Shown piece by piece: positions 2-63,182 of a stretch of DNA of 64,000 nucleotides; position 1 is the stretch's first letter; every line of letters starts with the position of its first letter. Source of the stretch: a virus. Lineage: Duplodnaviria; Caudoviricetes. The stretch is from positions 1,675 through 65,674 of the IMG/VR virus record IMGVR_UViG_3300023179_000106, one strand, 5' to 3'. The translations under genes were made by a program, and so were the position numbers. The notes below the pieces were generated by a model. The model worked only from the letters and a program-made list of their open reading frames with translations. It was not told the DNA's origin and searched no databases.

Positions 2-1351
2 GTTACTCGCCCACATCGGCTTGGGGGTTATCACCTTGTCGCCGTCGACCACGTCGAACAGCTCGACCCACCTGTGTATCTGGTCCTTGGTCACCCCGAG
101 GTTTCTGCGGGACGAAAGCAGGCGCTGCAGGTCGTCCGCGTCGAACTCCTTGAGGCTTATGAGGAAGCAGACCATCTCGGCCTCGTGGTTCGACCACTTC
201 ATGCCCGAAAGAGTCCTTCTGACCTCGTCGGTCGGGTTGTCTTGGAGTATCCACGCGAGGGCAAGGAACCTGTCCTTCTTGTTTCGCATGCCCGGGGGCA
301 CGTCCGTCCTCAATGAAAGCCCCGGCAGGACGGTCTTCAGGAGGCCGAACTTGGCGTATGTCTTGATGTACTTGGTCGGGTCTATGTTCTTGTCCTCGAT
401 TCCCTTGACGAACTCCTCGCGGATCCTTTCCTGTGCAACTCCCTCCAGAGTGGCGAACTTGGGTATGGCCCTAGCCAGCTCTGCGTCGATCGACTTGTCG
501 CTTCCGTACTTCGAGTGGAACCTGACGGCCCTGAGTACGCGCAGGCGGTCCTCGTCGAATCTCTTCTCCGCGTTGCCCACGGCACGTATCCTGCCCTCGT
601 GGGCGTCGGCGTAGCCCTTCTTGGTGGGATCGTACAGCCTCTTGTTCTCGCCGTCGGCCTTGGACAGCTCTATGTACATGGCGTTGATCGTGAAGTCCCT
701 GCGCTCGGCGTCCTCGAGCGGGTTGTCGACGAAGTCAACCTCGGACTGCCCGTTGACCGTCTTGGCGTCCTTCCTGAAAGTGGCTATCTCGAACTCCTCG
801 CCGTTCACGACGGCTCCGATCACGAAGGGCTTGTTGTCTCGGCTGGCGTCCCTCCCCTTGAGGTACCAAAGCCTAGCGTCGCCCTCGTCCGCCACCTGCG
901 GCTTGAACGAGAGTCGCATCTCCTTGGCCATCTCTCCGTCCCTCGCGGTGTGCTTGCCACTCCTGTCGTAGTCGGGGACCATCTTGCCGTCTGGCCCCGG
1001 GGCGCCGGGGACTTTGAAGCCCGCGTTGTGGAGGATGTGGGCGATCTGCTCCGGCGTGGCGTTGGTGGCCATGTCGAAGTCCTTCGGCCTCTCGCCGCGG
1101 ACGATGTCGCGCACGGCCCCGCCCACGAGGTACAGGCTCTTCTTCGGCATGGTGACTTTCTTCGACAGGTCGTTGGTGAGCTCGATGCTCCCGCTGTCCA
1201 GGAACGCCTGGATCACCGGTCGCATGTTGGAATGGGGCTTGAACCCCGGCTCGAGGTTGACGAACTCCTGCTTCCAGTTGGTCTCCCTCTCCTTCTGCTG
1301 GGCCTCCTCGTGAATCTTCCTGCTCTCTATGAACTGCTTGAATGACTTCAT
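2..1351 (-). CDS. cca: Class II tRNA nucleotidyltransferase (CCA-adding enzyme / poly(A) polymerase family); 3' end runs off the window
   Basis: Not in the ORF track; translated by hand from ATG at 1351. Begins MKSFKQFIES and contains LYLVGGAVRD..PKDFDMATNATP (motif A), EIATFRKD, EDAERRDFTINAM (motif B) and RFDEDRLRVLRAVRF (EDxxR motif D). Confidence 0.9.
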   Translation of the reverse strand, partial: MKSFKQFIESRKIHEEAQQKERETNWKQEFVNLEPGFKPHSNMRPVIQAFLDSGSIELTNDLSKKVTMPKKSLYLVGGAVRDIVRGERPKDFDMATNATPEQIAHILHNAGFKVPGAPGPDGKMVPDYDRSGKHTARDGEMAKEMRLSFKPQVADEGDARLWYLKGRDASRDNKPFVIGAVVNGEEFEIATFRKDAKTVNGQSEVDFVDNPLEDAERRDFTINAMYIELSKADGENKRLYDPTKKGYADAHEGRIRAVGNAEKRFDEDRLRVLRAVRFHSKYGSDKSIDAELARAIPKFATLEGVAQERIREEFVKGIEDKNIDPTKYIKTYAKFGLLKTVLPGLSLRTDVPPGMRNKKDRFLALAWILQDNPTDEVRRTLSGMKWSNHEAEMVCFLISLKEFDADDLQRLLSSRRNLGVTKDQIHRWVELFDVVDGDKVITPKPMWASN

Positions 1352-1359
1352 GGTTTTCT

Positions 1360-1367
1360 TATTTATG
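1360..1367 (-). promoter_or_regulatory. Putative late promoter CATAAATA (T4 late TATAAATA-like)
   Basis: Lies 8 nt upstream of the cca ATG. The same octamer precedes the ORFs starting at 40552, 46678 and 56287. Confidence 0.55.
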
Positions 1368-2229
1368 TGGTCACAGGACCAGTTTGGGAAGTAGGTATTC
1401 CGGCGCCTACATTTTGCGAATAAGTTCCGGGAGCATTCTGTAGCGGGGGTTGCGTGGCATTCTTGTTCTTGTTCGTCCCGCCGCTCAATTGATCTGCTAT
1501 GTCGCCCCAGTCCTGACCGCCTATTTCGGCGTCTTTGTTCTTGGGGCTGACGGTGAACGAGCACATCATTATTATGTTCGACTGCTGGCCTTGGCGGGAT
1601 GTCGGGAACTCCTGCCTGTCTTTCAGAACTGGGTTTTCGACGTTCAGGAGATGGGAGTACTGGAGTGTCCTCGACATGAGCCCCACCTTCATGAGGGACT
1701 CCGTGAAGTTCACGGCCGACTGGTAAGCCGCCGCGTTGTGCTGGGGGCCGGTACTGGTGTCGTATGCGAAGAGCTTCGTCTTCATGTTGCTGCCGCCGGC
1801 CGCTATCGATGTGTTGTTGTTGTTGTCGACCCTCCATATGCCCGGGTCGTCCAGGGGCTTCTGGGATATACCCCGAGCCATGTTCATGGTGCTCCTGCCG
1901 GAGTACAAGACCTGCCCGGAGTTCTCGTCGTAGTTGGTCGGAAGCTGGAGGGGCATGTATATCGCCTTGAGCATCGACCGCCTGATGTCTTCGATGTTGT
2001 TGAACTGCGGGACTTGCCCCGGCTCCGCACCCTTCCTTGCCCTGATGCTGGCGTTTGCCGCGCCGATGCCTCCTATGAGGCTGGCCGTGGCCCTGTTGTT
2101 GAACGTGGCGTCCAACGGGAGCATGGCGCGGGGTCCGTACGTGGCGTCTGGGCCTCGCATAAGCCCCTGTGAAGGGGCGGCGGCCTGGGCGGCCTCCTCC
2201 ACAGAAATCAGCCATTCAGAGAAGTTCAT
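1363..2229 (-). CDS. Hypothetical protein, candidate internal head protein
   Basis: Likely start MNFSEWLISVEE (ATG 2229 overlaps the upstream stop). N/Q/G-rich low-complexity stretches. Confidence 0.65.
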   Translation of the reverse strand: MNFSEWLISVEEAAQAAAPSQGLMRGPDATYGPRAMLPLDATFNNRATASLIGGIGAANASIRARKGAEPGQVPQFNNIEDIRRSMLKAIYMPLQLPTNYDENSGQVLYSGRSTMNMARGISQKPLDDPGIWRVDNNNNTSIAAGGSNMKTKLFAYDTSTGPQHNAAAYQSAVNFTESLMKVGLMSRTLQYSHLLNVENPVLKDRQEFPTSRQGQQSNIIMMCSFTVSPKNKDAEIGGQDWGDIADQLSGGTNKNKNATQPPLQNAPGTYSQNVGAGIPTSQTGPVTT

Positions 2230-2525: not shown

Positions 2526-2569
2526 GCGGCGGACCTCGACAATTGGGAACTCACACTCTATATAGCGCT

Positions 2570-3007
2570 ATGAGCGAAGAACTGACCCCCCAGGAAGCAG
2601 AGTTGGCAGTCCCTGCCGCAGGAGGGGTCAAGGACATGTCCATCGTCAGCGACGAGGCCCTTCTGGGGGTGTACGGCGAGATCATGGACAACCTTCGGAG
2701 CGACCGCGAGCAGGTTTCGGGCCTGCTCGACACCTTTTCCAACATGGTGCTCAACGACGGCGACTCCAGCACCGCCAGCAAGGAGGCCCTGGTGAACCTG
2801 CTCAAGACGAAGATCGAGGCGAGCGACAAGATGACCAGGATCGCCGACCTCATGACTCGCATAAAGCTCAAGCAGCCCGACACCTACCAGCCGTGGATGG
2901 GCAAGGGCAAGGAGAAGGGCGGAAACACGATAAACATATACGACTCTAGCGGGATAAACAGGAAGTCCCTCATAGAGCGGATACAGAAGGAGAAGGAAGA
3001 GAAATGA
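2570..3007 (+). CDS. Hypothetical protein
   Basis: ATG 2570 after TCTATATA; phage-typical codon usage; ATGA overlap with the next gene. Confidence 0.7.
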   Translation: MSEELTPQEAELAVPAAGGVKDMSIVSDEALLGVYGEIMDNLRSDREQVSGLLDTFSNMVLNDGDSSTASKEALVNLLKTKIEASDKMTRIADLMTRIKLKQPDTYQPWMGKGKEKGGNTINIYDSSGINRKSLIERIQKEKEEK

Positions 3008-4272
3008 GGCACAACCTTGAATTCTGGCTGGAGGAAGACCAGCAGATGCCGCAGATGCCACAGGACCCGCAGGTGACCAACCAGGCGGACGTGCAGGCCC
3101 AGGCTTCGGACGAAATGGGCCAGCCACCCGCCCCCGAAGAGGGCCAGGCTCCCCCGGCGGACGACGTGTCGGAGGACCCCGAGACGCCCGACATGCCAGA
3201 GGAAGGGGACGGGGACCAGGACTTCGAGGTCTGGAAGAGCAACTACTTCAAGGAGAGCATCAAGGGCGACGCCGCAGCGCTCCTCGAGATGCTCTCGCCC
3301 ATGAGGGAGAAGGAGGGCCTGGAGCCCTACCAGAGAAAGTTCGTCGACGACAACTGGAACGTTCAGCTTGTACGGCAAAACGCCAACGTGGCGGAGGCTT
3401 CGAAGCAGATAAGGAAGGCCATACGCGACCAGCTCGACAAGAACAACCCGGCGACGAGCGTGGTCAACCACATGTTCAACACGCTCCAGGGCATCCCTAC
3501 GCTGAACGAGACGTTCATCCGCATGATGGGATACACGGGGAACAAGGGCGAGCTCCACAGGAAGTTCGTCGCGGCGATCACGAGCTCCGTGCAGGTGAGC
3601 AGCAGCCCCGACAAGGAGAGCGTCATATTCAACGAGAAGGAGTATTCCATCAAGATCGCCACGAGGCTCAACAGCGACTGGGGCGAGGTTGCCCTCGGGA
3701 GCTGGTCGCTTCGGGAGGACGACCCCGAGCGCTACCTGTCCGAGCCCGAGATGAAGAGGCTGTCCGAGGGAAGCCCGCAGGAGCGGGACGTCTTGAGGAG
3801 GAGGGTCGTGGTGGAGTCGATATCCAAGCACTTCGACGAGCAGGCGTTCCTCATCACGGTCGTCTCGGACGACGGCACCATCTACCACCTCGGCTGGGAC
3901 ATGTCCAACGCGCTCAGGGGTGCGTACGCGGAGGGAAAGGTGGTTGTGAAGACCGTGAAGTCGGAGAACTCGGAGGCCATGATCAGCGACTCCGGAGAGA
4001 TACTGCCGATGGTCGACATGAAGATCTACTTCGTGAAGGACACCGACGAGCAGGACGAGAACGGCAACCCCAAGCCGGAGGAGATCGAGTTCATGGAGCG
4101 GAGGAACGGCATGCTGTTCCTCACGGCGAGCCTGCTCACCGTCAGGGAGGCCTCGTCGGCCATGCAGGGAACCGACTTCAAGGAGGTGCCGTACCAGGGC
4201 AACCCCAGCGACCTTAAGGCTCTAAAACGTTGCGTGTACAGCGCGCACGACATGCTAATGAGGCAGTGCTAA
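3004..4272 (+). CDS. Hypothetical protein with acidic Pro/Gln-rich N-terminus
   Basis: 422-aa ORF with strong GC3 bias, coupled to both neighbours. Confidence 0.8.
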   Translation: MRHNLEFWLEEDQQMPQMPQDPQVTNQADVQAQASDEMGQPPAPEEGQAPPADDVSEDPETPDMPEEGDGDQDFEVWKSNYFKESIKGDAAALLEMLSPMREKEGLEPYQRKFVDDNWNVQLVRQNANVAEASKQIRKAIRDQLDKNNPATSVVNHMFNTLQGIPTLNETFIRMMGYTGNKGELHRKFVAAITSSVQVSSSPDKESVIFNEKEYSIKIATRLNSDWGEVALGSWSLREDDPERYLSEPEMKRLSEGSPQERDVLRRRVVVESISKHFDEQAFLITVVSDDGTIYHLGWDMSNALRGAYAEGKVVVKTVKSENSEAMISDSGEILPMVDMKIYFVKDTDEQDENGNPKPEEIEFMERRNGMLFLTASLLTVREASSAMQGTDFKEVPYQGNPSDLKALKRCVYSAHDMLMRQC

Positions 4273-4273
4273 A

Positions 4274-4735
4274 ATGAAATTCTCCTCTTTCGTCGACAAG
4301 AAAACCAACAAGGCCCGCAAGGAACTCGCTCTGGTGCGGGGCGTACTCGAGGAGGGCGGCCTCAAGGTGGAGGACTTCACGAAGGAGAGGGATCCGTACC
4401 TGTACGTTCCGTCCACCAAGAAGGGCTTGGATTTCGGAGGAATTAGAATCTACAAGGTCGGATCATCGATAGCGTACAGGATACAGAACGAGGGCGACAC
4501 GGAGCCCTACGGGGCCTCGTACCCGCTGGACATCGAGGGCATGTTCGACGAGCTGATCAGCGAGATGGACGAGGACAAGGCGGCGGAGGAGATCAAGAAG
4601 GCCGTGTTGGAGGAGATAAACGGCTTCTTCGAGCGGAGCATGGAGGCCCAGGACGAGATCGGCGACAACATGTTCGACCCCCAGAGCAAGATAGTCGTCC
4701 CCGGCAGGGCGGGCGACCTCTCCAACATGATGTAA
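4274..4735 (+). CDS. Hypothetical protein
   Basis: 153-aa ORF immediately after the previous stop; starts MKFSSFVDKK. Confidence 0.75.
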   Translation: MKFSSFVDKKTNKARKELALVRGVLEEGGLKVEDFTKERDPYLYVPSTKKGLDFGGIRIYKVGSSIAYRIQNEGDTEPYGASYPLDIEGMFDELISEMDEDKAAEEIKKAVLEEINGFFERSMEAQDEIGDNMFDPQSKIVVPGRAGDLSNMM

Positions 4736-4802
4736 ACAGTCGAATTTTCTGCCAAAAACGGGCTATATACCCTGTTCCCGCCTTTCCCGAGAGCAGAATC
4801 CC

Positions 4803-5345
4803 ATGGCCCCTTTGCCACCAAGATCCACCGTTTTGCAGCAGTTCTTCAGGCCCGTGGGCCAGGACGTGGTCGCTAACCCTTCTCGCCGCATGGGCAAGAA
4901 CCTGGTGGCCAAGACGGGGAGCCTGGTCACCTTCAACTACGCGTTTTGGAAAAACGACCCGTACCCGCTGATCATCGTCATAGAGAACAACCTGGGCAAG
5001 GACAAACTCTCGGGCATCAACCTTCACTACCTGACCTTCAGAGACATCAAGAGTCTGATTTCGAAGGCCGGGAGCATGGGATTCTCCTACAAGTCGGTCT
5101 CCGACAGCCGTCCCTTCAGGGACTCCTACAGGTCGTACAAGCGTTCCGGCGTGCGCCAGCTCAAGGTGCTCGACCCCTCGTACCTGCTGGGCGTCATGGG
5201 CATGGTTCGCAGCTACGACCCCGCTGAGGTGCAGATCATAAGGAGGCAGGTGCAGGAGCAGCTGCGTACCCAGATCAACCCGAAAGCCTCGGAGGCGACT
5301 AATCTAGATCAGGCCGGCGCAGAACCGCCGGAAACCGGAGGCTGA
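4803..5345 (+). CDS. gp2: T4 gp2-like DNA end protector protein
   Basis: GSLVTFNY..DPYPLIIV..GINLHYL..YRSY matches the gp2 family pattern (FxY..D.FPL..GxNLHYL). Confidence 0.7.
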   Translation: MAPLPPRSTVLQQFFRPVGQDVVANPSRRMGKNLVAKTGSLVTFNYAFWKNDPYPLIIVIENNLGKDKLSGINLHYLTFRDIKSLISKAGSMGFSYKSVSDSRPFRDSYRSYKRSGVRQLKVLDPSYLLGVMGMVRSYDPAEVQIIRRQVQEQLRTQINPKASEATNLDQAGAEPPETGG

Positions 5346-8300
5346 TGGCAGAGGTACCTGACTATTTCGGACGGGTGGGGAACTTCAAGAACGCGGACTT
5401 CGACTCGCTCGCGGAGTCGCTGAAGTCGGCGGTAGGTAAGGCCGTGGAGTACGCGGCCGGTAAGGCGAAGTCCTCCGGCGACGAACTGAAGAAGGAGACC
5501 GACCGACTCGTCGACGCCATGGAGCAGCTCGGCGAGAAGATCAAGGAGAACCTGGAGGAGGTCAAGGACTTCGTGGACCAGGTCAAGAAGTCCTCGGAGG
5601 GCATCGAGAAGAAGAGGTCTTCCAAGGCCGCGGGCGGTGACGACCTGGCGGCCATGGCCCGGGAACAGACCCGAATCCTGCAGCAGATACTCAGGAGCCA
5701 GCAGAAGGCGGCGTCGGAGAAGGCTGCCAAGTTCACGAGCGGAGCCACCGCTCTTGCGGCCCCACGCGGCCGACGTGCGGGGCTCAAGGAAATGGGCTTC
5801 CGGCCGAAGGGGGCCGACAAGATACCCGCCATGCTAAGCCCCGGCGAGTTTGTGGTCAACAGGAAGGGAACGAGGGGCAACGAGTCGTTGCTAGACAGCA
5901 TAAACCGTGGCTATTTCAGGGGAGGCAAGGTCAAGCCGGCCTACCTTGCCGATGGAAACTTCTTGGATCGCATGTTCGGCGGCCGTGGAGCGAGGGCCCA
6001 AGCCTCCAAGATAAAACTGATCCTCGACGGCCCGTTCAACCAGAAGACGCACGACGAGGCGGTGGCGTGGTTCAATGGCCTGGGCCACGACGTCGAGGTC
6101 GAATTCTCCGACGAGTTCAACAAGAACCTAAAGAGTTCCGCCGCGAGGTGGATCACCAGCATAACCTCTGCCTTCGTGGGACACGATCCGTTCGCCGTGA
6201 TGTTCGAGGGCGGAGTGAAGGACATCACGGAGTTCCGCAGGGAGATGAGGAACCTCGCGTTCCAGGCGGAGGGCATAACGGGCGAGTTCCGCAAGTCGCA
6301 GGCGGAGTTCGCGAGGATAGGGACGGACATTGCGGGCAGGACGGGCGTTAGTGTGACGGCGTTCCAGAAGGCCTACCTCGCGAACGCACGAAAGGGCTTC
6401 AAGGACCAGAAGGCTTCGATGAAGGTTCTTGAGTCGGGGCTCAAGCTCTCCACGCTCATCGGTTCGGAGGCGCAGGCGACATCGACCTTGTTCGCGGACT
6501 GGCACAGGGACCTGGGTCTGGGTGCTGGCCAGATGGAACGCATGGCCAACAACATGCAGACGGTGGCGCGCAGGACGGGAATGACCGGCGACGAGCTCGT
6601 GGGCGTAATGAAGTCTTCGGAACAGATACTGAAGAACCTGCGTAGGCAGGGGACTCTCACGAACGAGGCCTCCAAAAACATCATCCAGAGCCTAGCGGAG
6701 TTCAAGAAGGAAGGCTTCGAAGACGTCGGCCAAAAGATGCTGGGGGCTATGTCTGGATACTCCGCATTCCAAGGCGCTGACGAAAAGACGAAGACTTTGC
6801 TAGGGGTTGCGGCCTCGCAAGGAGGCGTAGATTATCGAGACTTGATGTTCGGGCGAGTTCCCCAAAATGCAGAAAGCATGGGCAAGATGGCCGAGGGACT
6901 CAAGAAACAAATGGCCGACATGATCGGCGTGAGGGCGGAGGACTTTGATTTCGAAAAACTAACGGAAGCCCAAAGAGAGAAGCTCGCAATAGGATCCGAA
7001 GGAACCTTCGGAGTTCAGATATCGGAGGTGGAAGCGGCATACAAGTCCTTCTCCAAGACGGCCGCCGGCCTTGGCGGGTCTCTTGCCGAATTAGAGAAGG
7101 GACGATCCAACCAGTTCGCCACGCCCAAAGAGAGGCAGGAGAACGAAAAGAAGATCAACGATACGCTTCTGTCCGCGTCTATGGACTTGTTGGGTAGCGT
7201 CACCGCAAACACCAAGGATCAGAGCCTTGCTGACGCCGCCAAAGCCATAGCGGAAGGAAAGACGAAGGATGCGATCGACTTCAAGTCGGGCACAAAAGAC
7301 CTGTCAGCCATGGCTTCCTACATGTCTTCGGCGACAAAAGACCAATTCGGACTGTCTGGCACTCAAGAGGACATGGAAAAACAGATTCGGATGATGAGTG
7401 CCGAAAAGCAGATTCAGCTCAGGAGCATGACGGCAGCGGAGCAGCTGGACAAGACGATGCAGGCCCAGGGCAAGGGGTCGAAGAACTTCGCGGGTCAGAT
7501 GAAGGCGGCTCTCGCCAAGGGCGACACAACGAAGTTCAAGGCTCTCGCGGACGAGATGGGAGCGGCGTTCTCCGAGTCACAGGTCAAGGACGCAACTAGC
7601 GTCGACCCGATGGAAAGACTCAACCAGACTATTACGGAACTCAACGAAACATTCAGGGGCTTCATGTCCCCGCTTGTCGGCGGGTTCATAGACCTGATTG
7701 GTTCGATGGGACTCATGGCCGGCGTCGTGGGCTCGATGGGGGGAACCCTCTACAACATGATGCCGTGGGATGTCATCGGAAACATAGCGGACCCCGAAAA
7801 CGGAATAGGCAAGATACTGAAAGAGGGGATGGGGTCTGCCTTTTCTAGATTTGGCAAGTCTTTCAAAGCCGCAAAGTCGATGGGCTTCGGCACTGTGGAC
7901 GCCACTGGACTCGGCATAGCCAAGCAAATTCAAACCTCTCTCACGGCCATTTTTGGTGGCGGCCCATTCGCAAGCACCATGGCAACAGTGATGCGGGGAG
8001 CCATCGGCCCCGCTGTGCTATTGCTGGGCGCCATCAAGGGCGTGATGGAGTCATCGGAGGCAGGCCGCACCAAAACCGAGGGAGCAATTCTGGGGGCTTT
8101 CACTGGCGGAGCCAAGACAGGCAGTTTCCTCACTGGTCGGTATGGAAACGAGGCAACTGCCGGCGACAAGGCCTTGGGTGTTGCCGGAGCGGCCGCTTGG
8201 GGGGCAACTGCCGGGGCCGCGATAAGCGTGTCGCTTGGCGGAGCAGATTTAGGTCTTGCCATGGTTCTAGGGGCTTTATTTGCTGGATTCTGGGAGATAG

Positions 8301-14801: not shown

Positions 14802-14819
14802 TAAGGGGCGTAAAAAATA

Positions 14820-16958: not shown

Positions 16959-16960
16959 CA

Positions 16961-17383
16961 ATGGACTTCAGAGGAGCGCCTTACCCAATAACCAAGCACC
17001 CGCTCGGGCTTCTGAGGAGCCAGCGAGGGGTCGCGCAGGTCAAATCCGACCTGCTGAGCCTTCTCCTGACCGAGCCCGGGGAGCGGGTGATGCTCCCCAC
17101 CTTCGGAACGCCCCTGAAGCAGTTCTTTTTCGAACAAAACGACTCTGTTATTGTCGAAAGGGTCAAGGATGCCATAGCCAACGCCATCAGGACTTGGGAG
17201 CCGAGGATCGCCGTCACGGCCATAGAGGTGACGAACTCCTCTTCGAACATGGAGTCGTCTTTCAGTCCCCTGGAGAACGGCGAGAGCACGGAACATGTGT
17301 TGATGATCAGGATACTGTTCACGGACTTCGATGACATTCGTAGCGTCCAGGAACTCAAACTAGAAATTCCCCTAGGAGGTTGA
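16961..17383 (+). CDS. gp25: gp25-like baseplate wedge / sheath initiator
   Basis: LLLTEPGERVMLPTFGTPL..FE..AIRTWEPRIAV (GPW/gp25 signature). Confidence 0.9.
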   Translation: MDFRGAPYPITKHPLGLLRSQRGVAQVKSDLLSLLLTEPGERVMLPTFGTPLKQFFFEQNDSVIVERVKDAIANAIRTWEPRIAVTAIEVTNSSSNMESSFSPLENGESTEHVLMIRILFTDFDDIRSVQELKLEIPLGG

Positions 17384-17385
17384 CG

Positions 17386-22985: not shown

Positions 22986-23234
22986 ATGGCGAGGGACATC
23001 GAGTTTCGATCCGAATCCGGCAGGATATTGATAGACGGCGAGCCCTTCGACTGGGGGCTTGACGACGAAGCCATCGAAGAGGCCAACAGGCACGCCGGCA
23101 CGCCTCGCTTCATGAAGGCGATACACAACGACATCATGGGTCACTTCCTTGACTCGTTGTCCGAGGTCTTGGGCTTCAGGCCGTCAATGAAGCAGGTAAA
23201 CGAGGGTCTAGACAGGGGCTTCATATCTAAATGA
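22986..23234 (+). CDS. Hypothetical protein
   Basis: SD AGGAG; coupled to the next gene. Confidence 0.65.
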   Translation: MARDIEFRSESGRILIDGEPFDWGLDDEAIEEANRHAGTPRFMKAIHNDIMGHFLDSLSEVLGFRPSMKQVNEGLDRGFISK

Positions 23235-39437: not shown

Positions 39438-39480
39438 ATTTTCAGCCTCCATGCCGTACTAGTTTTATATAGGTTTTACG

Positions 39481-40539: not shown

Positions 40540-40547
40540 CATAAATA
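40540..40547 (+). promoter_or_regulatory. Putative late promoter CATAAATA
   Basis: 4 nt before ATG 40552, with no SD. Confidence 0.55.
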
Positions 40548-40551
40548 GGTC

Positions 40552-40734
40552 ATGGAATTCAAGAGGTGGCTGGCGGAGGTTGGCATGGGGGGCGGAGGGC
40601 CGGGTTCTGGGATGGCGCCGCCGCTCCAGAGGCCCGGAGTGGAGGCCCTTGCTGATTATCAGGGCCCTGAGCAGACCGATCCCAGAAATCCCAAGGGGAA
40701 GCTGCCCCCGACAAAAAGGAAAATCAAGAAATGA
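40552..40734 (+). CDS. Small Gly/Pro-rich protein with a capsid-targeting-like N-terminus
   Basis: Starts MEFKRWLAE; basic C-terminus; ATGA overlap with the next gene. Confidence 0.65.
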   Translation: MEFKRWLAEVGMGGGGPGSGMAPPLQRPGVEALADYQGPEQTDPRNPKGKLPPTKRKIKK

Positions 40735-45896: not shown

Positions 45897-46314
45897 CGAC
45901 CCGACTGGGTCGCCCATGATGGACCTGCCGGTCGCATACCTAGAAGGGGTCATGAGGCCCGAGGGCGTCGAGTGGGGGGACATAGCAGACGCCGTCCCGG
46001 TTTCTACGAGGACAGCCGGAATGCACTTCGACGGCCTCAGTCGATCGATGCATCTTGAGATAATCTACAAGGACGAACCGCCGGAATTGAGCGTCTATCA
46101 CAGGGGCCACTTGGTCTACAGAGAAGTCCAAGGCGACCTCGTCTGCTATGTGCCGCTAGACGAGTGGGAGGAGTGGGTGTCGTCCCTCTTCAAGACGGCG
46201 AAAAGAATTCAAAGGGAGTCCAAGGAACTGGAGTTCAAGGAGAGGGTTCAACAGGCCGACGAGTCAAAGCAGTCTTGGCTCAGGCACATCGCATCCCGAT
46301 GGGGAATCACATGA
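45721..46314 (+). CDS. Hypothetical protein
   Basis: SD GGAG; 197 aa; overlaps the MscL tail by 176 nt. Confidence 0.7.
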   Translation: MASKEEIESRIKEQRTAEANKKGLMGQGGKIGTVLRMLGSPIVGQSEDVAFLDLEGRGDDPTGSPMMDLPVAYLEGVMRPEGVEWGDIADAVPVSTRTAGMHFDGLSRSMHLEIIYKDEPPELSVYHRGHLVYREVQGDLVCYVPLDEWEEWVSSLFKTAKRIQRESKELEFKERVQQADESKQSWLRHIASRWGIT

Positions 46315-46678
46315 AGAAAAGCACATACGCCAACGCGGCGACCTGAACGAGTATGATCGCGCCGAACACATAGATGCTCTTTTTGATTCCCGATATCTTC
46401 TTCTCCACGGCGGCCCTCATCGGAGAAGCCACCGACTGCACAGAGGCCTGTCCGCCTCCCGCACAGAGGTTCTCGACGACGCTGCTTACCACCTCGCCGG
46501 TTGTCTCGTCAAGGGTCTGCGTCTCGCGCTCGCAGACGCAGAGCCTCTCGATCACGCGTTGAGACAGGCGCTTCACGGCCTTGGGCTCGACGTAGACCTC
46601 CGTGACCTTTGTGCGGGCGTCTGGGGCCATCTCGACCTTCTCTGCCTTCCTGCCGTCGTCAAGCGTGAACTCTGTCAT
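46307..46678 (-). CDS. Membrane-anchored protein with a C-terminal TM helix
   Basis: SD AAGGAG; ends IYVFGAIILVQVAALAYVLFFM. Confidence 0.7.
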   Translation of the reverse strand: MTEFTLDDGRKAEKVEMAPDARTKVTEVYVEPKAVKRLSQRVIERLCVCERETQTLDETTGEVVSSVVENLCAGGGQASVQSVASPMRAAVEKKISGIKKSIYVFGAIILVQVAALAYVLFFM

Positions 46679-46706
46679 TTTAAGTCTCCTTGTTTTGATC
46701 CGAGAG

Positions 46707-46714
46707 TATTTATG
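46707..46714 (-). promoter_or_regulatory. Putative late promoter CATAAATA
   Basis: Between the terminator and the SD of ORF 46678. Confidence 0.55.
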
Positions 46715-47128: not shown

Positions 47129-47156
47129 ATTCTAACAAAATCTAAGCCGCTGTCAA
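47129..47156 (-). promoter_or_regulatory. Sigma70-type promoter
   Basis: TTGACA-N16-TAGAAT on the minus strand. Confidence 0.7.
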
Positions 47157-52370: not shown

Positions 52371-54872
52371 ATGGCGTGGTGGGATTTCTACAGGCTTTGG
52401 ACTTACCAGTTCGAGAAGGGACCACTTGAGAAGCTCGACAACCGCAATCTGACGGGTGCGGGCGTCGTCGTGCCCGACGCCATGCCAGACCTCCGCAGCG
52501 ACGCCTACGGCGACGCGAGGAGTCAGATCAGGCTCCACGACAGCAACGACTTCATCGACCTGAGCACCGTCACAAACCGCCAGAGCCGATACAAGGAGTA
52601 CGAGAGGCTCAGGAGCGTGGCGGAGGTCGAGATGGCCATGACCGTCATCAGCGACGAGGCCTGCGTCCACGGCGACACCCGTATCTCCACCCTTTTCGAC
52701 GGACAGAAGACCATACGCTGGCTCACCGAGAGGTGGAAGAAGAACCCCAGTCCGTTCCTGGTCTACTGCTGGGACTTCTCCAAGGAGGACTACACACTCG
52801 GGTGGGCCTACGAACCCAGGATCGTCAAACGGGACAAGACCGTGAAGGTGCTGCTGGACGACGGCACGAGGTTCGTGGTCACGCCGGACCACAGGATACT
52901 CACACGCGACCAGAGGTGGGTGGCCGCCGGCGACCTGAAGAAGGGCGACGAGCTCATGCCGTTCTACCGCCTGCAGCCGAACAAGAAGCTGAATAGGCTG
53001 CGTACGGGCCAGTTCCCCAGAATATTCACGTTCGACGGCTGGAAGCACGAGAGGCAGTTCATAGACGAGTGGAAGGGCGAGGGGGAGCGGTACGGAAAGG
53101 TCGGGATGGCGACGAAGCTCCTCGCCTCGGGGTTCAGCACCAGGAAGGTGGGGAGCATCATGAAGCACTCCTGGAACAGCGTCAGGGACTGGATCGGCAA
53201 GGAAGGGTTCAACACCAAGGAGCTCAAGTGGCTCGGGCGGATGAACGACAGAAGGCGCGTGGTCGGCGTGATAGAGGGCGAGGACGCCGAGGTCTACGAC
53301 CTCAGCGTAAGGGAGCACGAGAACTTCTGCACCGACGGCGTGGTGATGCACAACTGCCAGAAGAACGACAAGGGCGACATCTTCAGGATATCGTGCGAGG
53401 ACGAGCAGGTTCGCAAGGAACTCGAGTTCCTTTGCTTCAACAGGAAGATGCTGAACCTGAACCGCAGGGCGTGGCAGATGGTAAAGAAGCTGTGCATATT
53501 CGGCGACGCCTTCTACGAGCTGGTGACGGATCCGGAGGAGCCCAAACAGGGCGTGCTGAAGATGCAGGAGCTCCCTCCCGACAGCATGTTCAAGATCGTA
53601 ACCACGAAGGGGCGGGTGGTCGAGTACCAGCAGAGCAAGGAGGGCCCCGACTACCAGGCCCTCACGAGGAGCTCCGTCACGACGGCTTCGGAGCAGGAGC
53701 TCATGCAGTCCAATGCGATAAGGTTCGCCCCCAGCCAGGTGATCCACATATACCTCGGCGACGACAGGAGGACGTTCTACCCCTACGGGCAGAGCCTCAT
53801 GGAGCCGGCGAGGGGGCCGGCCCACCAGCTGCGTCTGATGGAGGACGCCATGCTCGTGTACCGGCTCGTAAGGGCCCCGGAGCGCAGGATATTCTACATC
53901 GACGTCGGGCAGCTCCCGCCGTACAAGGCCGAGGCCTTCGTGGAGAGGATGAAGGACCAGTTCAGGAAGAAGAAGGTGCAGACGGGACGCGGAACCGGGG
54001 CCAACGCCGTCGACGAGAGGTGGCACGCCCCGGCGGCCGACGAGGACTACTGGATACCGATCCGCCCGAACGCAAACACGAGGATAGAGACGCTGCCCGG
54101 CGCCCAGAACCTCGGAGAGATCGACGACGCCATCTACTTCAGGAACAAGCTCTTCACCGCCCTGAACTTCCCGAAGAACTACATGAACAACGAGGACGCG
54201 GGGGCGACGAGGATAACGCTCAGCGCCCAGGACGCAAGGTTCGCGAGGATGGTGGAACGCATACAGTCGAGCGTCGAGGACGGCATCCTTGAGATATGCG
54301 AGAGGCACCTCGAGATGAGGGGCTTCCCGGCGGAGGCCTACGAGGATCTCAAGATCGAGATGACCCCGCCGAGCAGCTGGAAGGAACTGAGCGAGGCAGA
54401 GATCATGAACAACAGGATCAGCGTGGTCACCTCGCTCAAGAGCAGCATGCTGATGAGCGACTTCGACCTTCTCACCCGATACATGCGGGTGTCTGAGGAG
54501 GAGGCTCAAAGGATAATCAGCCGCAACAAGATCCAGAAGCTCGAGGATCTCAAGATACAGATCATCGGCCAGAACCCGCAGCTCCTCGGCGTGGGTGTGC
54601 CTGGCTCCGACTCCGGGGGCCCCGAGATGGGCGCGGAGATGGGCGGGCCGACGCCAGACATCGGCGGGGACCAGCCCCTCGGCATGGACGGGCCGCCTGA
54701 AGGTGGTGGCGAGCAACCAGAGCTAGAGGGACTACCGAAAGAAGAGGGCGACGAGGCGCCGCCGGAGCTCCCCGATCCGACAGACGAGGAGATCAAGAAG
54801 TACGACCTCGGCGTTGAGGACTACAGCAGGGTGATCGACCAGGAGGACATCGACTGGAGCGAGGAGGGTTAG
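52371..54872 (+). CDS. gp20: Portal vertex protein containing an intein
   Basis: QLRLMEDAMLVYRLVRAPERRIFYIDVG, EDYWIP, IETLPGAQNLGEIDD..YF..KL. Confidence 0.95.
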   Translation: MAWWDFYRLWTYQFEKGPLEKLDNRNLTGAGVVVPDAMPDLRSDAYGDARSQIRLHDSNDFIDLSTVTNRQSRYKEYERLRSVAEVEMAMTVISDEACVHGDTRISTLFDGQKTIRWLTERWKKNPSPFLVYCWDFSKEDYTLGWAYEPRIVKRDKTVKVLLDDGTRFVVTPDHRILTRDQRWVAAGDLKKGDELMPFYRLQPNKKLNRLRTGQFPRIFTFDGWKHERQFIDEWKGEGERYGKVGMATKLLASGFSTRKVGSIMKHSWNSVRDWIGKEGFNTKELKWLGRMNDRRRVVGVIEGEDAEVYDLSVREHENFCTDGVVMHNCQKNDKGDIFRISCEDEQVRKELEFLCFNRKMLNLNRRAWQMVKKLCIFGDAFYELVTDPEEPKQGVLKMQELPPDSMFKIVTTKGRVVEYQQSKEGPDYQALTRSSVTTASEQELMQSNAIRFAPSQVIHIYLGDDRRTFYPYGQSLMEPARGPAHQLRLMEDAMLVYRLVRAPERRIFYIDVGQLPPYKAEAFVERMKDQFRKKKVQTGRGTGANAVDERWHAPAADEDYWIPIRPNANTRIETLPGAQNLGEIDDAIYFRNKLFTALNFPKNYMNNEDAGATRITLSAQDARFARMVERIQSSVEDGILEICERHLEMRGFPAEAYEDLKIEMTPPSSWKELSEAEIMNNRISVVTSLKSSMLMSDFDLLTRYMRVSEEEAQRIISRNKIQKLEDLKIQIIGQNPQLLGVGVPGSDSGGPEMGAEMGGPTPDIGGDQPLGMDGPPEGGGEQPELEGLPKEEGDEAPPELPDPTDEEIKKYDLGVEDYSRVIDQEDIDWSEEG
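52662..53354 (+). mobile_element. Intein (231 aa) in the portal gene
   Basis: Block A CVHGDTRI; block B VTPDHRIL; block F VYDLSV; block G VVMHN followed by +1 Cys. Confidence 0.92.
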
Positions 54873-56274: not shown

Positions 56275-56282
56275 CATAAATA
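56275..56282 (+). promoter_or_regulatory. Putative late promoter CATAAATA
   Basis: 4 nt before ATG 56287. Confidence 0.55.
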
Positions 56283-56286
56283 GGGC

Positions 56287-56961
56287 ATGTTTGCATTTAG
56301 GGAATGGCTCATGAACGAGGCCGCCATGGGCCCCAACAGCATCCGTTACGACGCCCAAGGCAGGCCGAACTTCCGAGTTTACATAATGAACGACGGCGGA
56401 CTCGTAGGCCTTGAGACGCTGCAGAATGGCCAATACAAGTTCGCGGGAGACATGTTCAGCAACATCTTCGGGGACTCAAGCCTATTGAGGGGCCGAAAGA
56501 TATTCAACTGGCATTCCGACCTCCCCGAGGGTTCGGGCTACGGCCCAATGTTCTACGACATATGCATGGAAATCGCGACGATCAAGGGAGGTCACCTCGC
56601 CTCCATGACGCTCGTGAATCGACTCGCGCTCGTAAGTTCGGGGAAGGACTTCGACTACGAACAGTCGAAAGAGAGGAAGGGCGCCTCCATGGGCGACACG
56701 AGCGACAGGGCGGAGCCGATCTATAAGTTCTATTACGAGAAGAGGGGCGATGTCGAAAAGGTCGACCCCGGTGTCAGGGTGGCCAAGCTGCGAGCCGCGG
56801 CGGACAGGGCGGGGATACCGAAAACCCAGCAGAGCAACCTGAAGGGCCATATGGTCGGAGGCGTTGTGGTCTCCGTCAACAGCAGGAAAGTACGCCTGAC
56901 GCCCGATGAGGCCGAGAACTTAAAGTTCGCCCAGGAGTTAGCAAGGAGAATGGGCAACTAG
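56287..56961 (+). CDS. Candidate internal head protein with a GNAT-like motif
   Basis: Starts MFAFREWLMNE; GSGYGPMFYD..S..A..IY pattern. Confidence 0.6.
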   Translation: MFAFREWLMNEAAMGPNSIRYDAQGRPNFRVYIMNDGGLVGLETLQNGQYKFAGDMFSNIFGDSSLLRGRKIFNWHSDLPEGSGYGPMFYDICMEIATIKGGHLASMTLVNRLALVSSGKDFDYEQSKERKGASMGDTSDRAEPIYKFYYEKRGDVEKVDPGVRVAKLRAAADRAGIPKTQQSNLKGHMVGGVVVSVNSRKVRLTPDEAENLKFAQELARRMGN

Positions 56962-60085: not shown

Positions 60086-60793
60086 ATGAAGCTACTTCTG
60101 GAGCACGAACTGACCCCGGGATCGGTGTTCGAGAACAGGCTCATCCTGGGCGGGGGCGCCGTCCTCAACGAGATGGACCTGCACGAGGCCACCGGGGCCG
60201 GCGGACTCGTCAAGTTCCGCGGCAAGTTCCAGGAGGCCGACGCGGTCAACAAGAACAAGAGAACCTACCCGTTCAACATCCTCAACGACAACGTGAAGGG
60301 ACTCCAAGAGACCATCAAGAACGGCGGGCTGATCGGCGAACTCGACCACCCCACCGACTCGATCGTCCACTTCGCAAACGCCAGCCACAAGATCACCAGA
60401 CTCTGGTGGGAGGGCAAGACCCTCATGGGCGAGGGCGTCATTCTGAACACACCCCACGGCAAGATTCTCAAGGCGCTCATCAACGACGGCGTCAGGGTTG
60501 GCATCTCCAGCCGCGGGGTGGGCAACGGTAAGGTCAACGAGGAAGGCATCCTCGTCATCGGCGAGAGCTACAAGCTCATCACCTTCGACGCGGTCGCCGA
60601 CCCCAGCACCAGCCAGGCGTTCCAGGAGAAAGTAGTCTCCAAGGAGAGCGTGGTCCACGCGGCTGCCCCGGAGGAAGCGCGCGTGTCAGTGAAAAATGAA
60701 GCCAGCGGCATACATACCCTGAACAAGGACATAGTTCTTGCCGCCCTCGGCGGAATCATCCAGAAACAGGCCAAAGCCATAAAGAGAGGTTGA
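60086..60793 (+). CDS. gp21: Prohead core protease
   Basis: NKNKRTYP, GELDHP, GISSRGVG, FDAVADPST. Confidence 0.93.
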   Translation: MKLLLEHELTPGSVFENRLILGGGAVLNEMDLHEATGAGGLVKFRGKFQEADAVNKNKRTYPFNILNDNVKGLQETIKNGGLIGELDHPTDSIVHFANASHKITRLWWEGKTLMGEGVILNTPHGKILKALINDGVRVGISSRGVGNGKVNEEGILVIGESYKLITFDAVADPSTSQAFQEKVVSKESVVHAAAPEEARVSVKNEASGIHTLNKDIVLAALGGIIQKQAKAIKRG

Positions 60794-60798
60794 ATCAC

Positions 60799-61716
60799 AT
60801 GGAAAAGATTGTTGAAGCTTTGACTAAGCTGCTCCCCGAGGACGCGGTCGCCGAGGTGACTGAGGCTGTCAAGAACGAACTCGAGACCGCCAAGCAGGCC
60901 CTCGAGACCGAGTACACCACCAAGCTCGAAGAGGCCTACGCGGAACTCTCCGACGAGCTCAAGGGCGCCGAAGAGACCGCCATCAAGGGCTACAAGGAGG
61001 CGTACGCCATCATCACCGACCTGCGCGCCAGGCTTGAGACCCAGCAGAAGGAGTTCGAGGCCAGCATGGAGGAAGGTTACGAAGAGGCCTACCAAATGCT
61101 CCAGGCCGAGAAGAGCAAGAACGAGAACCTGGAAGTCGAGATGTACGACACCTTCGACAAGAAGCTCCAGGAGATGAAGGAGTACATGGTCGACAAGGTC
61201 GACCAGTTCCTCCAGTACAAGGGCTCGGAGATCTACGAGAGCGCCCGCAAGGAGCTCGAGGGCGACCCGCGCACCAACGAACACAAGGTCGCCCTCGACA
61301 AGATCGTCGAGGCAGTGGCCAGCTACATCGGAGAGGAAGGCGTCGCGGCGACCGACTCGGCCAAGGCCGACGAGCTCGCCCGCAAGGTCGAGGAGATCAA
61401 GGCCCAGGTCAAGATCCTCGAGGCCCGCAACATACGCCTCAGCTCCGAGAACACCAAGCTTACCGAGGCAGTCCGCGAGACCCAGAAGGTCATCACGGAA
61501 AGCGCCAAAGCCGAGAAGAAAGAAAGAACCGAAAGAGCGAAGAATGTGCAGGGGAGAGGACGTGCCGTCAGCGAGGCGGAGGTCGTCGCCGAATGGACCG
61601 GAGACAAGACCGCCAAGCCCGAGAAGGGCAACGCCGACAACACCCTGGTCGAGAGCATCGACCCGGACCTGCTTCGTCAAATGCAGGTTCTAGCCGGGAC
61701 GAAGAAGGAAGACTAA
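60799..61716 (+). CDS. gp22: Prohead scaffolding protein
   Basis: Acidic coiled coil with MVDKVDQFLQY, located between protease and capsid genes. Confidence 0.8.
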   Translation: MEKIVEALTKLLPEDAVAEVTEAVKNELETAKQALETEYTTKLEEAYAELSDELKGAEETAIKGYKEAYAIITDLRARLETQQKEFEASMEEGYEEAYQMLQAEKSKNENLEVEMYDTFDKKLQEMKEYMVDKVDQFLQYKGSEIYESARKELEGDPRTNEHKVALDKIVEAVASYIGEEGVAATDSAKADELARKVEEIKAQVKILEARNIRLSSENTKLTEAVRETQKVITESAKAEKKERTERAKNVQGRGRAVSEAEVVAEWTGDKTAKPEKGNADNTLVESIDPDLLRQMQVLAGTKKED

Positions 61717-61754: not shown

Positions 61755-63182
61755 ATGCAAGCTAATGCAAAGTTCCTGAATGAAGCAAGGGAGCTGGAAT
61801 CTCGTTGGGCGCAGACAGGTTTGCTAGAGAACATCACAGACAAGTACACACGTTCTTGCACTGCCGTTCTCCTCGAAAACCAGCGCCTCATCAACGAGTC
61901 CAGCACCGACTCGGGCGACGTCGCCCAGTTCAAGAGGATCTCGATTCCGCTCGTGCGCAGAATCTATCCGCAGCTGATCGCCAACAAGGTCGTCTCGGTC
62001 CAGCCGTTGCTCGGCCCGACCGGCCTCGTGTACTACCTCCGCTTTCGCTACGGTAGCAACAAGGGTTCGGTACGCGGAGCCACCAAGAGCGGCTTCCCGA
62101 CCGACGACGTCAACTCGCTCCAGCAGCTCGCCTCCGGCGACGCCAACCTGAGCGTGTACTACTCGCACCAGTTCGTCGAGAACGAGTCGAGCGCGACCGA
62201 CGCGGGCGGCACCAGCACGTCCCACGTCCTCGAGCACACGCCCGTCCTCGCCGGCACCGTGACAGGTACCGTCTATGACGGCACCGTCGCCGTCCAGACC
62301 TTCGTGGTCTCGGAAAGCGGCTCGTTCACGTTCAACGACATCGGCACCCCCGCCAACAAGGTCACCGGCGCAACGCTGAACCTGACCACCGGCGAGATGG
62401 CCCTGACGTGGAACAACGACCCGGGCGCCAACCGTGTTGTCGTCTCGTACGAGTACAACATGGAATGCAACCAGGACCTCCCCGAAATCAACCTCGTGGT
62501 TGAGAGCGAGGAGATCGCGGCCAAGACCCGCAAGCTGAAGGCCGTCTGGAGCTACGAAGCCCAGCAGGACCTCCGCTCGCAGCACAACCTCGACGCCGAG
62601 GCTGAGCTTACCGCCGTCCTGGCCCAGGAGATCAATCTCGAGATCGACCGTGAGGTTCTCTCGGACCTGCGCAACAACGCCGGCACCGTGGCCTCGTGGG
62701 ACTTCAACACCGCCCTTGGTGACACCATCAAGGAAAAGTACGAGTCCCTCTACGTCAAGGTCGTCGAGGTCAGCAACGTGGTGCATCGCAAGACGCTCCG
62801 CGGCGGCTGCAACTGGCTCGTGACCAGCCCCGAAGTCGCCTCGATCTTCGAGACGGCCACCGCTGGCTTCGCCCCGGCTCCGTCGGAAGGCTTCACCTCG
62901 TCGCTCGGCATCCAGTATGTCGGCACCGTGAACAACCGCTGGAGGCTCTACAAGGATCCGCTGTTCCCGACGGGACAGATCCTCATGGGCTATAAGGGCG
63001 ACTCGTACATGGACAGTGGTTACTTCTACTGCCCGTACGTGCCACTCACCCAGACGCCAGTCGTACTCGATCCCGAGTCCTTCTGCCCGCGTAAGGGAAT
63101 TTTAACAAGGTACGGGAAGAAGCTTCTGAGAGAAGGCGCCAAATTCTACGCCCGCCTCTCGATAGCCAATTTCGTGATTTAG
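61755..63182 (+). CDS. gp23: Major capsid protein
   Basis: AVLLENQ, PLVRRIYPQLIA..VQPLLGPTG, AKTRKLKAVWS.EAQQDL, EINLEIDRE, FYCPYVPL, GILTRYG. Confidence 0.97.
   Translation: MQANAKFLNEARELESRWAQTGLLENITDKYTRSCTAVLLENQRLINESSTDSGDVAQFKRISIPLVRRIYPQLIANKVVSVQPLLGPTGLVYYLRFRYGSNKGSVRGATKSGFPTDDVNSLQQLASGDANLSVYYSHQFVENESSATDAGGTSTSHVLEHTPVLAGTVTGTVYDGTVAVQTFVVSESGSFTFNDIGTPANKVTGATLNLTTGEMALTWNNDPGANRVVVSYEYNMECNQDLPEINLVVESEEIAAKTRKLKAVWSYEAQQDLRSQHNLDAEAELTAVLAQEINLEIDREVLSDLRNNAGTVASWDFNTALGDTIKEKYESLYVKVVEVSNVVHRKTLRGGCNWLVTSPEVASIFETATAGFAPAPSEGFTSSLGIQYVGTVNNRWRLYKDPLFPTGQILMGYKGDSYMDSGYFYCPYVPLTQTPVVLDPESFCPRKGILTRYGKKLLREGAKFYARLSIANFVI

Follow-up and report, generated by a model that had tools for sequence, protein, structure and literature searches.

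A candidate capsid-targeting leader of T4 type on a tRNA nucleotidyltransferase and on many other proteins of an uncultured huge-phage clade

The window analysed here, a stretch of 64,000 nucleotides (nt) from a virus record of 65,674 b (C1:1675-65674), carries at its left end a gene for a class II tRNA nucleotidyltransferase, probably of the CCA-adding type, whose first ten residues resemble the capsid-targeting sequence (CTS) of the internal proteins (IPs) of phage T4. The GC content of the record was about 58% and its completeness, as estimated by CheckV, was 13%, therefore the genome size should be near 500 kb. The phage is uncultured, roughly 500 kb in size and has a T4-type head; its closest public genome was the uncultured 595-kb phage LR756511.1 (capsid protein 78% identical), and capsid identity to cultured phages was about 40% at most. 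The features of the enzyme locus were as follows.

2..1351, minus strand: class II tRNA nucleotidyltransferase gene (putatively CCA-adding type), codons 1-450 of 519 inside the window
1322..1351, minus strand: leader, residues 1-10 (MKSFKQFIES), candidate capsid-targeting peptide, based on the conservation of S3 and F4, the match to T4 IPs and a model confidence (pLDDT) of about 60
1277..1321, minus strand: variable acidic linker, residues 11-25, based on length and composition in homologues; pLDDT below 50 at residues 16-22
1307..1315, minus strand: I13-H14-E15, predicted prohead-protease site of the L/I-x-E type, enriched in homologues
1073..1123, minus strand: motif A, residues 77-93 (GGAVRD...DFD), aligning to human and Bacillus CCA enzymes
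842..1009, minus strand: family-specific head-domain insert, residues 115-170 (about 55 amino acids, aa), corresponding to a gap in the human enzyme between query residues 114 and 171
1360..1367, minus strand: CATAAATA, T4-late-like promoter motif overlapping the TAA stop of the upstream gene, with an 8-nt spacer to the ATG (AGAAAACC)
1363..2229, minus strand: upstream neighbour, 288 aa, start MNFSEWLISVEE, same leader, syntenic with the enzyme gene in relatives
2558..2565, unstranded: palindromic CTATATAG between divergent operons, candidate second promoter class upstream of the enzyme operon, based on CTATATA enrichment

The enzyme gene is the third of its operon; its ATG lies at positions 1351-1349 and its frame continues beyond the left end of the window. 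Over the whole record the open reading frame (ORF) comprised 519 aa (L001:1295-2851:-, P0001) with the start MKSFKQFIESRKIHEEAQQ, and the protein N-terminus read MKSFKQFIESRKIHEE. The decapeptide MKSFKQFIES at the start of the enzyme and the CATAAATA motif 8 nt before its ATG, both claimed in the original prediction, were confirmed from the sequence and the full record. A longer ORF from an upstream start at 2215 was rejected: the frame is open, but the stretch encodes the neighbour 1363-2229 (minus strand) in another frame, and this neighbour (third-position GC, GC3, of 0.77) was taken as a real gene. The ATG at 1351 was taken as the start because all 60 aligned homologues (described below) begin at or near MKSF. 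The neighbour itself gave no usable family match in PHROG, Pfam, NCBIfam or atlas searches.

The enzyme matched the PolyA_pol head domain (PF01743, E 9.7e-26) and PolyA_pol_RNAbd (E 1.2e-6) in Pfam, and the tRNA nucleotidyltransferase profile in PHROG (E 4e-45); 20 solved PDB structures were related to it at E <= 0.001, with the human mitochondrial CCA-adding enzyme at the top (3.3e-24). The AlphaFold2 (AF2) model, built from the alignment of 60 homologues, had a mean pLDDT of 87.6, and low confidence was confined to residues 1-30 (60, 49 and 65 per block of ten). Its best Foldseek matches were 4x4w (E 1.6e-16, TMt 0.63) and 1miv (E 7.6e-15), followed by psychrophilic and Thermotoga CCA-adding enzymes, with the E. 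coli poly(A) polymerase ranking only 14th (TM-score 0.51 vs. 0.63). Bacterial CCA enzyme clusters aligned structurally to residues 32/35-516 of the model, and by Foldseek and structural alignment the head-neck-body-tail fold of tRNA nucleotidyltransferases was present in full.

The catalytic positions were strongly conserved among the 60 homologues: G77, G78, V80, R81, D82, D91 and D93 of motif A were nearly invariant; R217, R218 and D219 (RRD, which we take to be motif B) were at least 90% conserved; and in EDxxR (presumably the nucleotide-selecting motif D) E267 was at least 90% conserved, and D268 and R271 were invariant. The head-domain insert had conserved residues of its own (F149, P151, D158, W162, G166 and D168) and was partly ordered in the AF2 model. 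The product is best described as an active-looking class II tRNA nucleotidyltransferase, probably of the CCA-adding type, judging from its sequence and modelled fold; CCA addition is a chemistry that we infer, because all NCBIfam equivalog cut-offs were missed (NF009814, the CCA family: 133 bits vs. a cut-off of 290; PcnB: 120 vs. 305.65).

The protein search listed 120 relatives (coverage 88-100%, on contigs of up to 546 kb), 60 of which, with 45-84% identity, were chosen for the alignment. All 60 had the same three-part build: a leader, a variable linker and a conserved body starting at W26. The family start had the consensus MKSFKxF, in most cases MKSFKEF with V, I or L next; S3 and F4 were conserved to 90% or more. 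The linker was a low-complexity segment of about 6 to 35 aa composed of Ser, Gly and acidic residues (Glu-rich). The 79 loci collected from viral contigs (GC 29-61%) gave 60 distinct enzyme N-termini: 42 fitted one of two leader patterns, and in 9 more the leader was visible by eye, either behind a miscalled start or as a variant. The clearest exceptions were six of the most distant homologues (L059, L064, L072 and L076-L078), whose matches begin at residue 50-73 or later; within the enzyme family the leader was kept down to about 30% identity.

The leader had been expected on phage homologues and not on bacterial ones, and this distinction holds for the 60 aligned proteins vs. the cellular homologues parsed: it was absent from all 40 of them, taken from the best 80 found among 185,579 prokaryote species with one genome per species. 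These best 80 cellular relatives were at most 41% identical to the enzyme and most of their matches began at residue 59-76; in the 40 parsed, the distance from the ATG to GGxVRD had a median of about 29-35 aa, with no linker. The cultured-phage homologues examined included no leader-bearing form (matches from residue 32 or later, mostly 57-75), and the first 25 residues had no tblastn match in the phage collection. The extension of roughly 70 aa that had been claimed before motif A was correct in that motif A starts at residue 77, but it is not one block: about 30 aa lie truly outside the fold, because bacterial CCA enzymes align from residue 32-35, and the remaining added length consists of a 15-aa insert before strand 1 and the insert of about 55 aa at residues 115-170.

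The N-terminus does resemble the T4 CTS, and more closely than originally stated. In the T4 genome, read directly, IPII and IPIII start with MKTYQEFIAE, and IPI starts with MKTFKEFTSTTTPVSTITE (MKTFKEF vs. MKSFKEF in the enzyme family). According to the available text of PMC9026906, a review on how the T4 head is assembled, the propeptides of T4 internal proteins have 10-19 residues, the first 10 residues of IPIII are enough for packaging, positions 4 and 7 of the CTS serve targeting and positions 8 and 10 processing, and the protease gp21 cleaves after L/I-x-E. The enzyme has F4, F7 and I8, and its family keeps F4, F/Y7 and I/V/L8, i.e. the T4 determinant positions. Between the start and the conserved Trp, [LI]-x-E was found in 46 of the 60 homologues, with a density of 0.036 per residue in leader and linker vs. 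0.0056 in the rest of the proteins (6-fold). Cleavage had been proposed after E9, E15 or E16: IHE15 fits L/I-x-E and is the best candidate, E9 and E16 being poorer ones.

The same leader is a clade-wide feature carried by many proteins. It was searched for with the pattern M-x(0-4)-[FY]-x-x-[WFY]-[LIVM] (core F-x-x-[WFY]-[LIVM]) on crude gene calls (first ATG, longest non-overlapping ORFs, some N-termini being miscalled), and it opened 206 of 1919 ORFs in the window and the 79 loci, duplicate loci included, vs. 112 of 9227 internal Met positions (1.2%). There were 140 distinct non-enzyme examples, typically MNFKEWLxxxE, and 61 of 756 protein families, clustered without the first 25 residues, were tagged in at least half of their members. 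In the complete relative G001 (the 572,167-b genome behind L012) the pattern was present on 44 of 916 ORFs vs. 21 of 2506 internal Mets. Synonymous codons varied at the conserved leader residues (Leu was encoded by all six codons, Phe by TTT 133 times and by TTC 66 times), which argues that selection acts on the leader peptide. Composition was compared between 144 distinct leaders (enzyme family and one large family removed) and 87 internal controls: Glu occurred at positions 6-10 in 78% vs. 34%, and [LI]-x-E in 35% vs. 10%. In a T4 control (70 kb, 127 ORFs) the pattern matched ipII, ipIII, gp61.1 and three unrelated ORFs. The T4 gp61.1 gene (NC_000866, L194 18966-19130, minus strand) encodes 54 aa, is annotated as hypothetical and starts with MKTFKEFIKED, like the internal proteins.

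Apart from the enzyme and its upstream neighbour, the window contained the following genes with the leader or a related start.

3004..4272, plus strand: 422-aa protein with the leader-like start MRHNLEFWLEED, then a Pro/Gln/acid-rich linker; the L018 homologue starts MNNLVFTDWLLEQD
4274-4735, strand unstated: gene with a looser form of the leader pattern
40540..40734, plus strand: CATAAATA and, 4 nt on, the ATG of gene 40552-40734, which encodes 60 aa (MEFKRWLAEV, with a Gly-rich stretch next)
56275..56961, plus strand: CATAAATA and, 4 nt on, the ATG of gene 56287-56961, which encodes 224 aa (MFAFREWLMNE), between portal and protease genes

Relatives of the tagged gene 56287-56961 were found neither in viral contigs nor in the phage collection. 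A Pfam run was made on 61 of the 134 tagged locus proteins (one member of a large 155-170-aa family was kept; some near-duplicates and spurious-looking items were left out), and 13 gave matches: HAD_SAK_1 (four), ArdC-N (two), an SNF2 helicase, a sigma-70-like protein, an AAA_33 kinase, AdoMet decarboxylase, a small nucleotidyltransferase, DUF5591 and DUF5661. The sigma-70-like protein, the two ArdC-N proteins and the SNF2 helicase (971 aa) were leader-started and lay among L030 15668-17254, L015 15803-17497, L017 18716-20233 and L063 3487-6399. Four of 24 tagged proteins of G001 were matched: DUF5661, HTH, NUDIX and ART-PolyVal (31.1 bits vs. a cut-off of 31.2). By the head module of LR756511.1 (L200), the ORF at 14521-15018 starts with MLTWTEFLEARQ and that at 16847-20077 (1076 aa) with MEFREWFRSAE; both lie directly behind TAAATA-N4-ATG.

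The motif CATAAATA agrees at 7 of 8 positions with TATAAATA, which we take to be the T4 late promoter consensus near -10. Four copies were present in the window vs. 0.31 expected (0 of 100 shuffles reached 4), and all four lay 4-28 nt upstream of an ORF start: two at 4, one at 8 and one at 28 nt. The last of these was the following.

46307..46714, minus strand: CATAAATA right after a terminator-like hairpin and 28 nt before a 123-aa gene, led by a Shine-Dalgarno (SD) sequence and without the leader

For the shorter TAAATA, 8 of 10 sites in the window had an ORF of at least 50 aa starting no more than 80 nt away, one of which looks spurious. In G001, a TAAATA ending 3-7 nt ahead of the ATG was found for 8 of 44 tagged genes vs. 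19 of 872 other genes (odds ratio 10, p 1.7e-5), and the untagged genes with it included the scaffold homologue (TAAATA-N4-ATG) and very large structural-looking ORFs; SD sequences were rarer before tagged genes (8 of 44 vs. 320 of 872). The capsid gene of LR756511.1 had TAAATA 33 nt upstream, and the capsid, scaffold-position and protease genes of the window had no motif directly upstream. Of five large relatives, two had a gp55-like late sigma factor by the profile phrog_234, and none matched a single-sequence query with T4 gp55; the record itself is only 13% complete. The motif CATAAATA, originally called a late promoter, thus behaves as a real promoter-like element, enriched and preceding genes, including scaffold and capsid genes in relatives, and is predicted to be T4-late-like. 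If the T4 geometry holds, transcription would begin at the ATG or a few bases away from it at most. A role of the leader as a translational need of such leaderless mRNAs was considered and rejected: some leaders follow SD sequences, and some genes of the leaderless type have no leader peptide.

A second motif, CTATATA, had 6 copies in the window vs. 0.70 expected, most of them just upstream of gene starts (copies at 2558-2565, 4763-4769, 23705-23711, 33347-33353 and 39466-39472). A scan for sigma-70 promoters and terminators around the enzyme gene gave no excess over shuffles, and no terminator was found before the enzyme gene.

The window also encodes the head genes on which packaging of the T4 type would depend.

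52371..54872, plus strand: T4-type portal (Gp20 family, PF07230 E 4e-77) with an intein (PF14890 E 2e-12, residues 153-328)
60086..60793, plus strand: prohead core serine protease of the T4 gp21 family (PF03420 Peptidase_S77 E 2.1e-28; phrog_207 E 3e-49)
60799..61716, plus strand: 305-aa ORF located where T4 has its scaffold gene (gp22), assigned by position and with no family match
61755..63182, plus strand: major capsid protein, Gp23 family (PF07068 E 5.5e-85; 78% identical to that of LR756511.1)

A T4-type large terminase and baseplate genes were encoded in the fragment too. PF03420, PF07230 and PF07068 were thus all present in the window. Other genes of the window included a tape-measure-like protein of 2353 aa with several internally triplicated segments (5345-12406, plus strand), a SET-domain protein (23231-23761, plus strand), a ferritin-like protein (47153-47623, minus strand), a trypsin-like peptidase with a hydrophobic, signal-like N-terminus (38553-39452, minus strand) and an actin-family protein matching Volactin over its full length (PF25216, E 1.4e-62; 35020-36036, plus strand). 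The Volactin match prompted a comparison of the promoter-like motif with an archaeal TATA box, which was rejected: only 4-8 nt separate the motif from the ATG, whereas a TATA box would be about 26 nt from a start.

As to possible substrates, G001 had 40 tRNA genes, none with an encoded CCA, and the window had no tRNA gene. Two of the G001 tRNAs would read stop codons, their anticodons being CTA and TCA. The 40 genes without CCA make the maturation of phage tRNAs the simplest task for the enzyme, and therefore a simpler alternative to tRNAs damaged by host defences. A gene for a HAD protein (DxDxT) adjoined the enzyme gene in 30 of the 79 loci, duplicates again included (L012, L016, L019, L026 about 11.5-12.4 kb, plus 26 more loci), often with the same leader, and 4 of 5 such neighbours tested against Pfam matched PF10307 (HAD_SAK_1). 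In the available text of PMC7824862 the RNA repair of jumbo phages has this HAD family as its linear 3'-phosphatase, and CCA is restored by the CCA-adding enzyme. This neighbour points additionally to a putative repair of cut 3' ends.

Because the leader is T4-like and many phage proteins carry the same tag, the enzyme may enter the host with the DNA. Residues 1 to about 10 would be a targeting peptide of the T4 IP type, and residues 11 to about 30 a flexible acidic linker carrying IHE15. The gene would be transcribed, at least partly, from the T4-late-like CATAAATA abutting the ATG, giving an mRNA almost without a leader; the N-terminal peptide would dock the enzyme on the prohead scaffolding core; the gp21-family protease would cut the peptide off; and the mature enzyme would remain in the head and enter the next host with the DNA. 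There it could add or rebuild 3' CCA ends from the first minute, on the CCA-less tRNAs of the phage itself or on 3'-trimmed tRNAs, and in many relatives it could work with the neighbouring "Swiss-army-knife" HAD RNA 3'-phosphatase. We consider that the chances of the enzyme being packaged through its leader and injected with the DNA are evenly balanced, and the original prediction, which had proposed late synthesis, packaging and injection of a tRNA repair enzyme, was in this sense partly supported. A broader proposal is put forward more tentatively, at somewhat less than an even chance: huge T4-like phages may use the T4 IP tag as a general capsid-loading system for dozens of proteins per genome, often made from nearly leaderless late mRNAs (TAAATA-N4-ATG), so that the virion would deliver a kit for tRNA 3'-end repair or maturation and for host take-over before phage gene expression. 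Candidate cargo, judged by leader and domain content, would be the CCA-adding enzyme, the HAD RNA 3'-phosphatase, and ArdC-like, SNF2, sigma-factor, NUDIX and ART-like proteins.

Several observations weigh against packaging and injection. Glu9 follows F-I and makes no L/I-x-E site, and T4 has its Glu at position 10; cleavage at IHE15 is likewise only inferred. The leader pattern is loose: three of its six T4 matches were unrelated to the CTS, and a primase was matched too. This DnaG-type primase (36667-37716, minus strand) starts with MSIDFDRFLDWAESR and its G001 homologue with MSISFDKFVSWAESR, both fitting the pattern; because no linker follows, it is probably a false positive with a family-specific N-terminus. 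The link to late transcription was uneven: the closest relatives (L002-L009, L015 and L017) had an SD sequence and no TAAATA before the enzyme gene; TAAATA was found within 45 nt upstream in just 26 of the 60 distinct homologues; and in the pooled loci the association between tag and TAAATA was modest (10 of 59 vs. 32 of 584 at GC of at least 0.42, not significant at lower GC). Since the motif overlaps the upstream stop and no terminator lies between, the enzyme gene could also be read from an upstream promoter, for which the CTATATA-type motif upstream of its operon is a candidate, and its expression may not be late only. T4-type genes were distributed unevenly over the five large relatives (S77 in 3 of 5, Gp23 in 4 of 5, gp55 in 2 of 5); in the two without an S77 match phrog_207 was not found either, and Portal_T4 gave one weak match below the cut-off. 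G004, 98% complete and with tagged genes, had no detected T4-type portal, capsid or protease. The HAD partner was not found beside the enzyme gene in the contig of the window or in its nearest relatives, the NCBIfam cut-offs were missed, and the clade has no cultured member.

The strongest competing explanation is that of an enzyme working only in the cytoplasm, where it would mature CCA-less phage tRNAs or top up host repair, the peptide being some other regulon-wide signal. Such a signal might be a helix that docks the protein in a cytoplasmic assembly, might mark it for a chaperone or for degradation, or might place it near the membrane. This explanation would account well for the 40 CCA-less tRNA genes of the complete relative and for the frequency of CCA-adding enzymes in jumbo phages, read as RNA repair or maturation in the available text of PMC7824862 and PMC7162821. 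The tagged-gene genome without detectable T4-type head genes and the pattern on a primase are also in its favour; however, the peptide closely matches the proven CTS of T4 at the positions with a known role there, the flexible linker behind it is enriched in L/I-x-E sites, and TAAATA-N4-ATG is common to tagged, scaffold and structural genes. The tagged set was, moreover, rich in domain types predicted to be injected. The absence of the Atu_ph07 enzyme from virions, a further point for the cytoplasm, fits packaging equally well, since that enzyme has no leader. On the whole we regard an exclusively cytoplasmic enzyme as unlikely.

Two other explanations concern the leader or the chemistry. That the protein is a poly(A) polymerase, or an A-adding or other tailing enzyme marking host or phage RNAs, would explain why its PcnB score nearly equalled the CCA score with both under their cut-offs, and why E. 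coli poly(A) polymerase chains were among the best PDB sequence matches (9.4e-24 vs. 3.3e-24); we nevertheless judge it improbable, as the best structural neighbours over the full length were CCA-adding enzymes, with poly(A) polymerase at rank 14, bacterial CCA enzymes aligned through residue ~516, an RNA 3'-phosphatase of the HAD type adjoined the gene in 30 of 79 loci and the phages carry many tRNA genes without encoded CCA. Even less credit is given to a functionless peptide left as the by-product of a mobile cassette, made of a promoter and the first codons and shuffled by recombination. Such a cassette would explain why many tagged genes have promoter-like motifs 3-7 nt ahead of their ATG, and tagged genes were often ORFans in variable regions; yet synonymous codons varied freely at conserved residues, the leader persisted to about 30% identity and across GC contents of 29-61%, leaders occurred behind SD sequences without the motif, and the motif occurred before genes without the leader.

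Phage CCA-adding enzymes and the T4 capsid-targeting sequence are both known; a literature search, with most subscription journals outside its reach, found no description of such a tag, be it for phage CCA enzymes or for huge phages. If packaging and injection of the enzyme are true, translation-repair enzymes would join the injected cargo, which would change the view of the first minutes of huge-phage infection and bear on that of defences acting on tRNA. The tag would then predict virion cargo from sequence alone in an uncultured clade with 80-90% unannotated genes, and tagged proteins would be candidates for counter-defence and host take-over functions. T4 offers an established reporter system for such tags, so the idea is simply testable.

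The leader described here shares several traits with that of T4 IPI, IPII and IPIII: it is a short N-terminal peptide in which positions 4 and 7 are aromatic and position 8 is aliphatic; in the phage enzyme a candidate L/I-x-E site, ending in Glu, follows it; it stands on otherwise unrelated, fast-evolving proteins; and the genome also encodes a protease of the gp21 family and a Gp20/Gp23 head. The differences are in the cargo, a 58-kDa housekeeping-type RNA enzyme and not a small anti-restriction or DNA-binding protein; in the peptide, with Glu at position 9, the best cleavage site at residue 15 and a variable acidic/Ser/Gly linker behind the tag; and in number, dozens of tagged genes per genome vs. 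three or four in T4. T4 Alt, which in the available text of PMC5694885 is packaged, injected and trimmed by gp21 at ITE-6 to a mature size of 68.2 kDa, is a precedent for an enzyme of comparable size travelling with the DNA, and a tagged ART-like protein occurs in a relative of the phage studied here; Alt differs in activity and target, in being trimmed at the C-terminus too and in its 6-residue propeptide.

Among class II CCA enzymes (Bacillus, 1miv; human mitochondrial, 4x4w) the fold, motif A, RRD and EDxxR are shared, whereas the phage enzyme has about 30 more N-terminal residues, inserts of 15 and about 55 aa and a longer C-terminus. The protein gp18 of Atu_ph07, a T4-core jumbo phage with many tRNA genes, belongs to the same enzyme family; it has 421 aa, starts with MLTPELENIAEIF, has just 23 residues before motif A and carries no leader. 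It was not listed among the 131 virion proteins of the Atu_ph07 proteome (Table S5), which, given the missing leader, fits both a packaged and a cytoplasmic enzyme in the clade studied here. The ejection proteins of phiKZ-like phages and SPN3US, as described in the available text of PMC9026906 and PMC5694885, are packaged in the head, delivered with the DNA and cut after Glu by a gp21-related protease; their propeptides are mostly longer than 100 residues with the motif S/A-x-E, unlike the short tag found here. The "polyvalent proteins" of PMC5512222, a source whose headings name ARTs, ArdC-N and a DNA methylase-helicase dyad, are predicted to be injected with the DNA as well, and fuse many domains in one chain, whereas in the present clade each domain has its own short tag.

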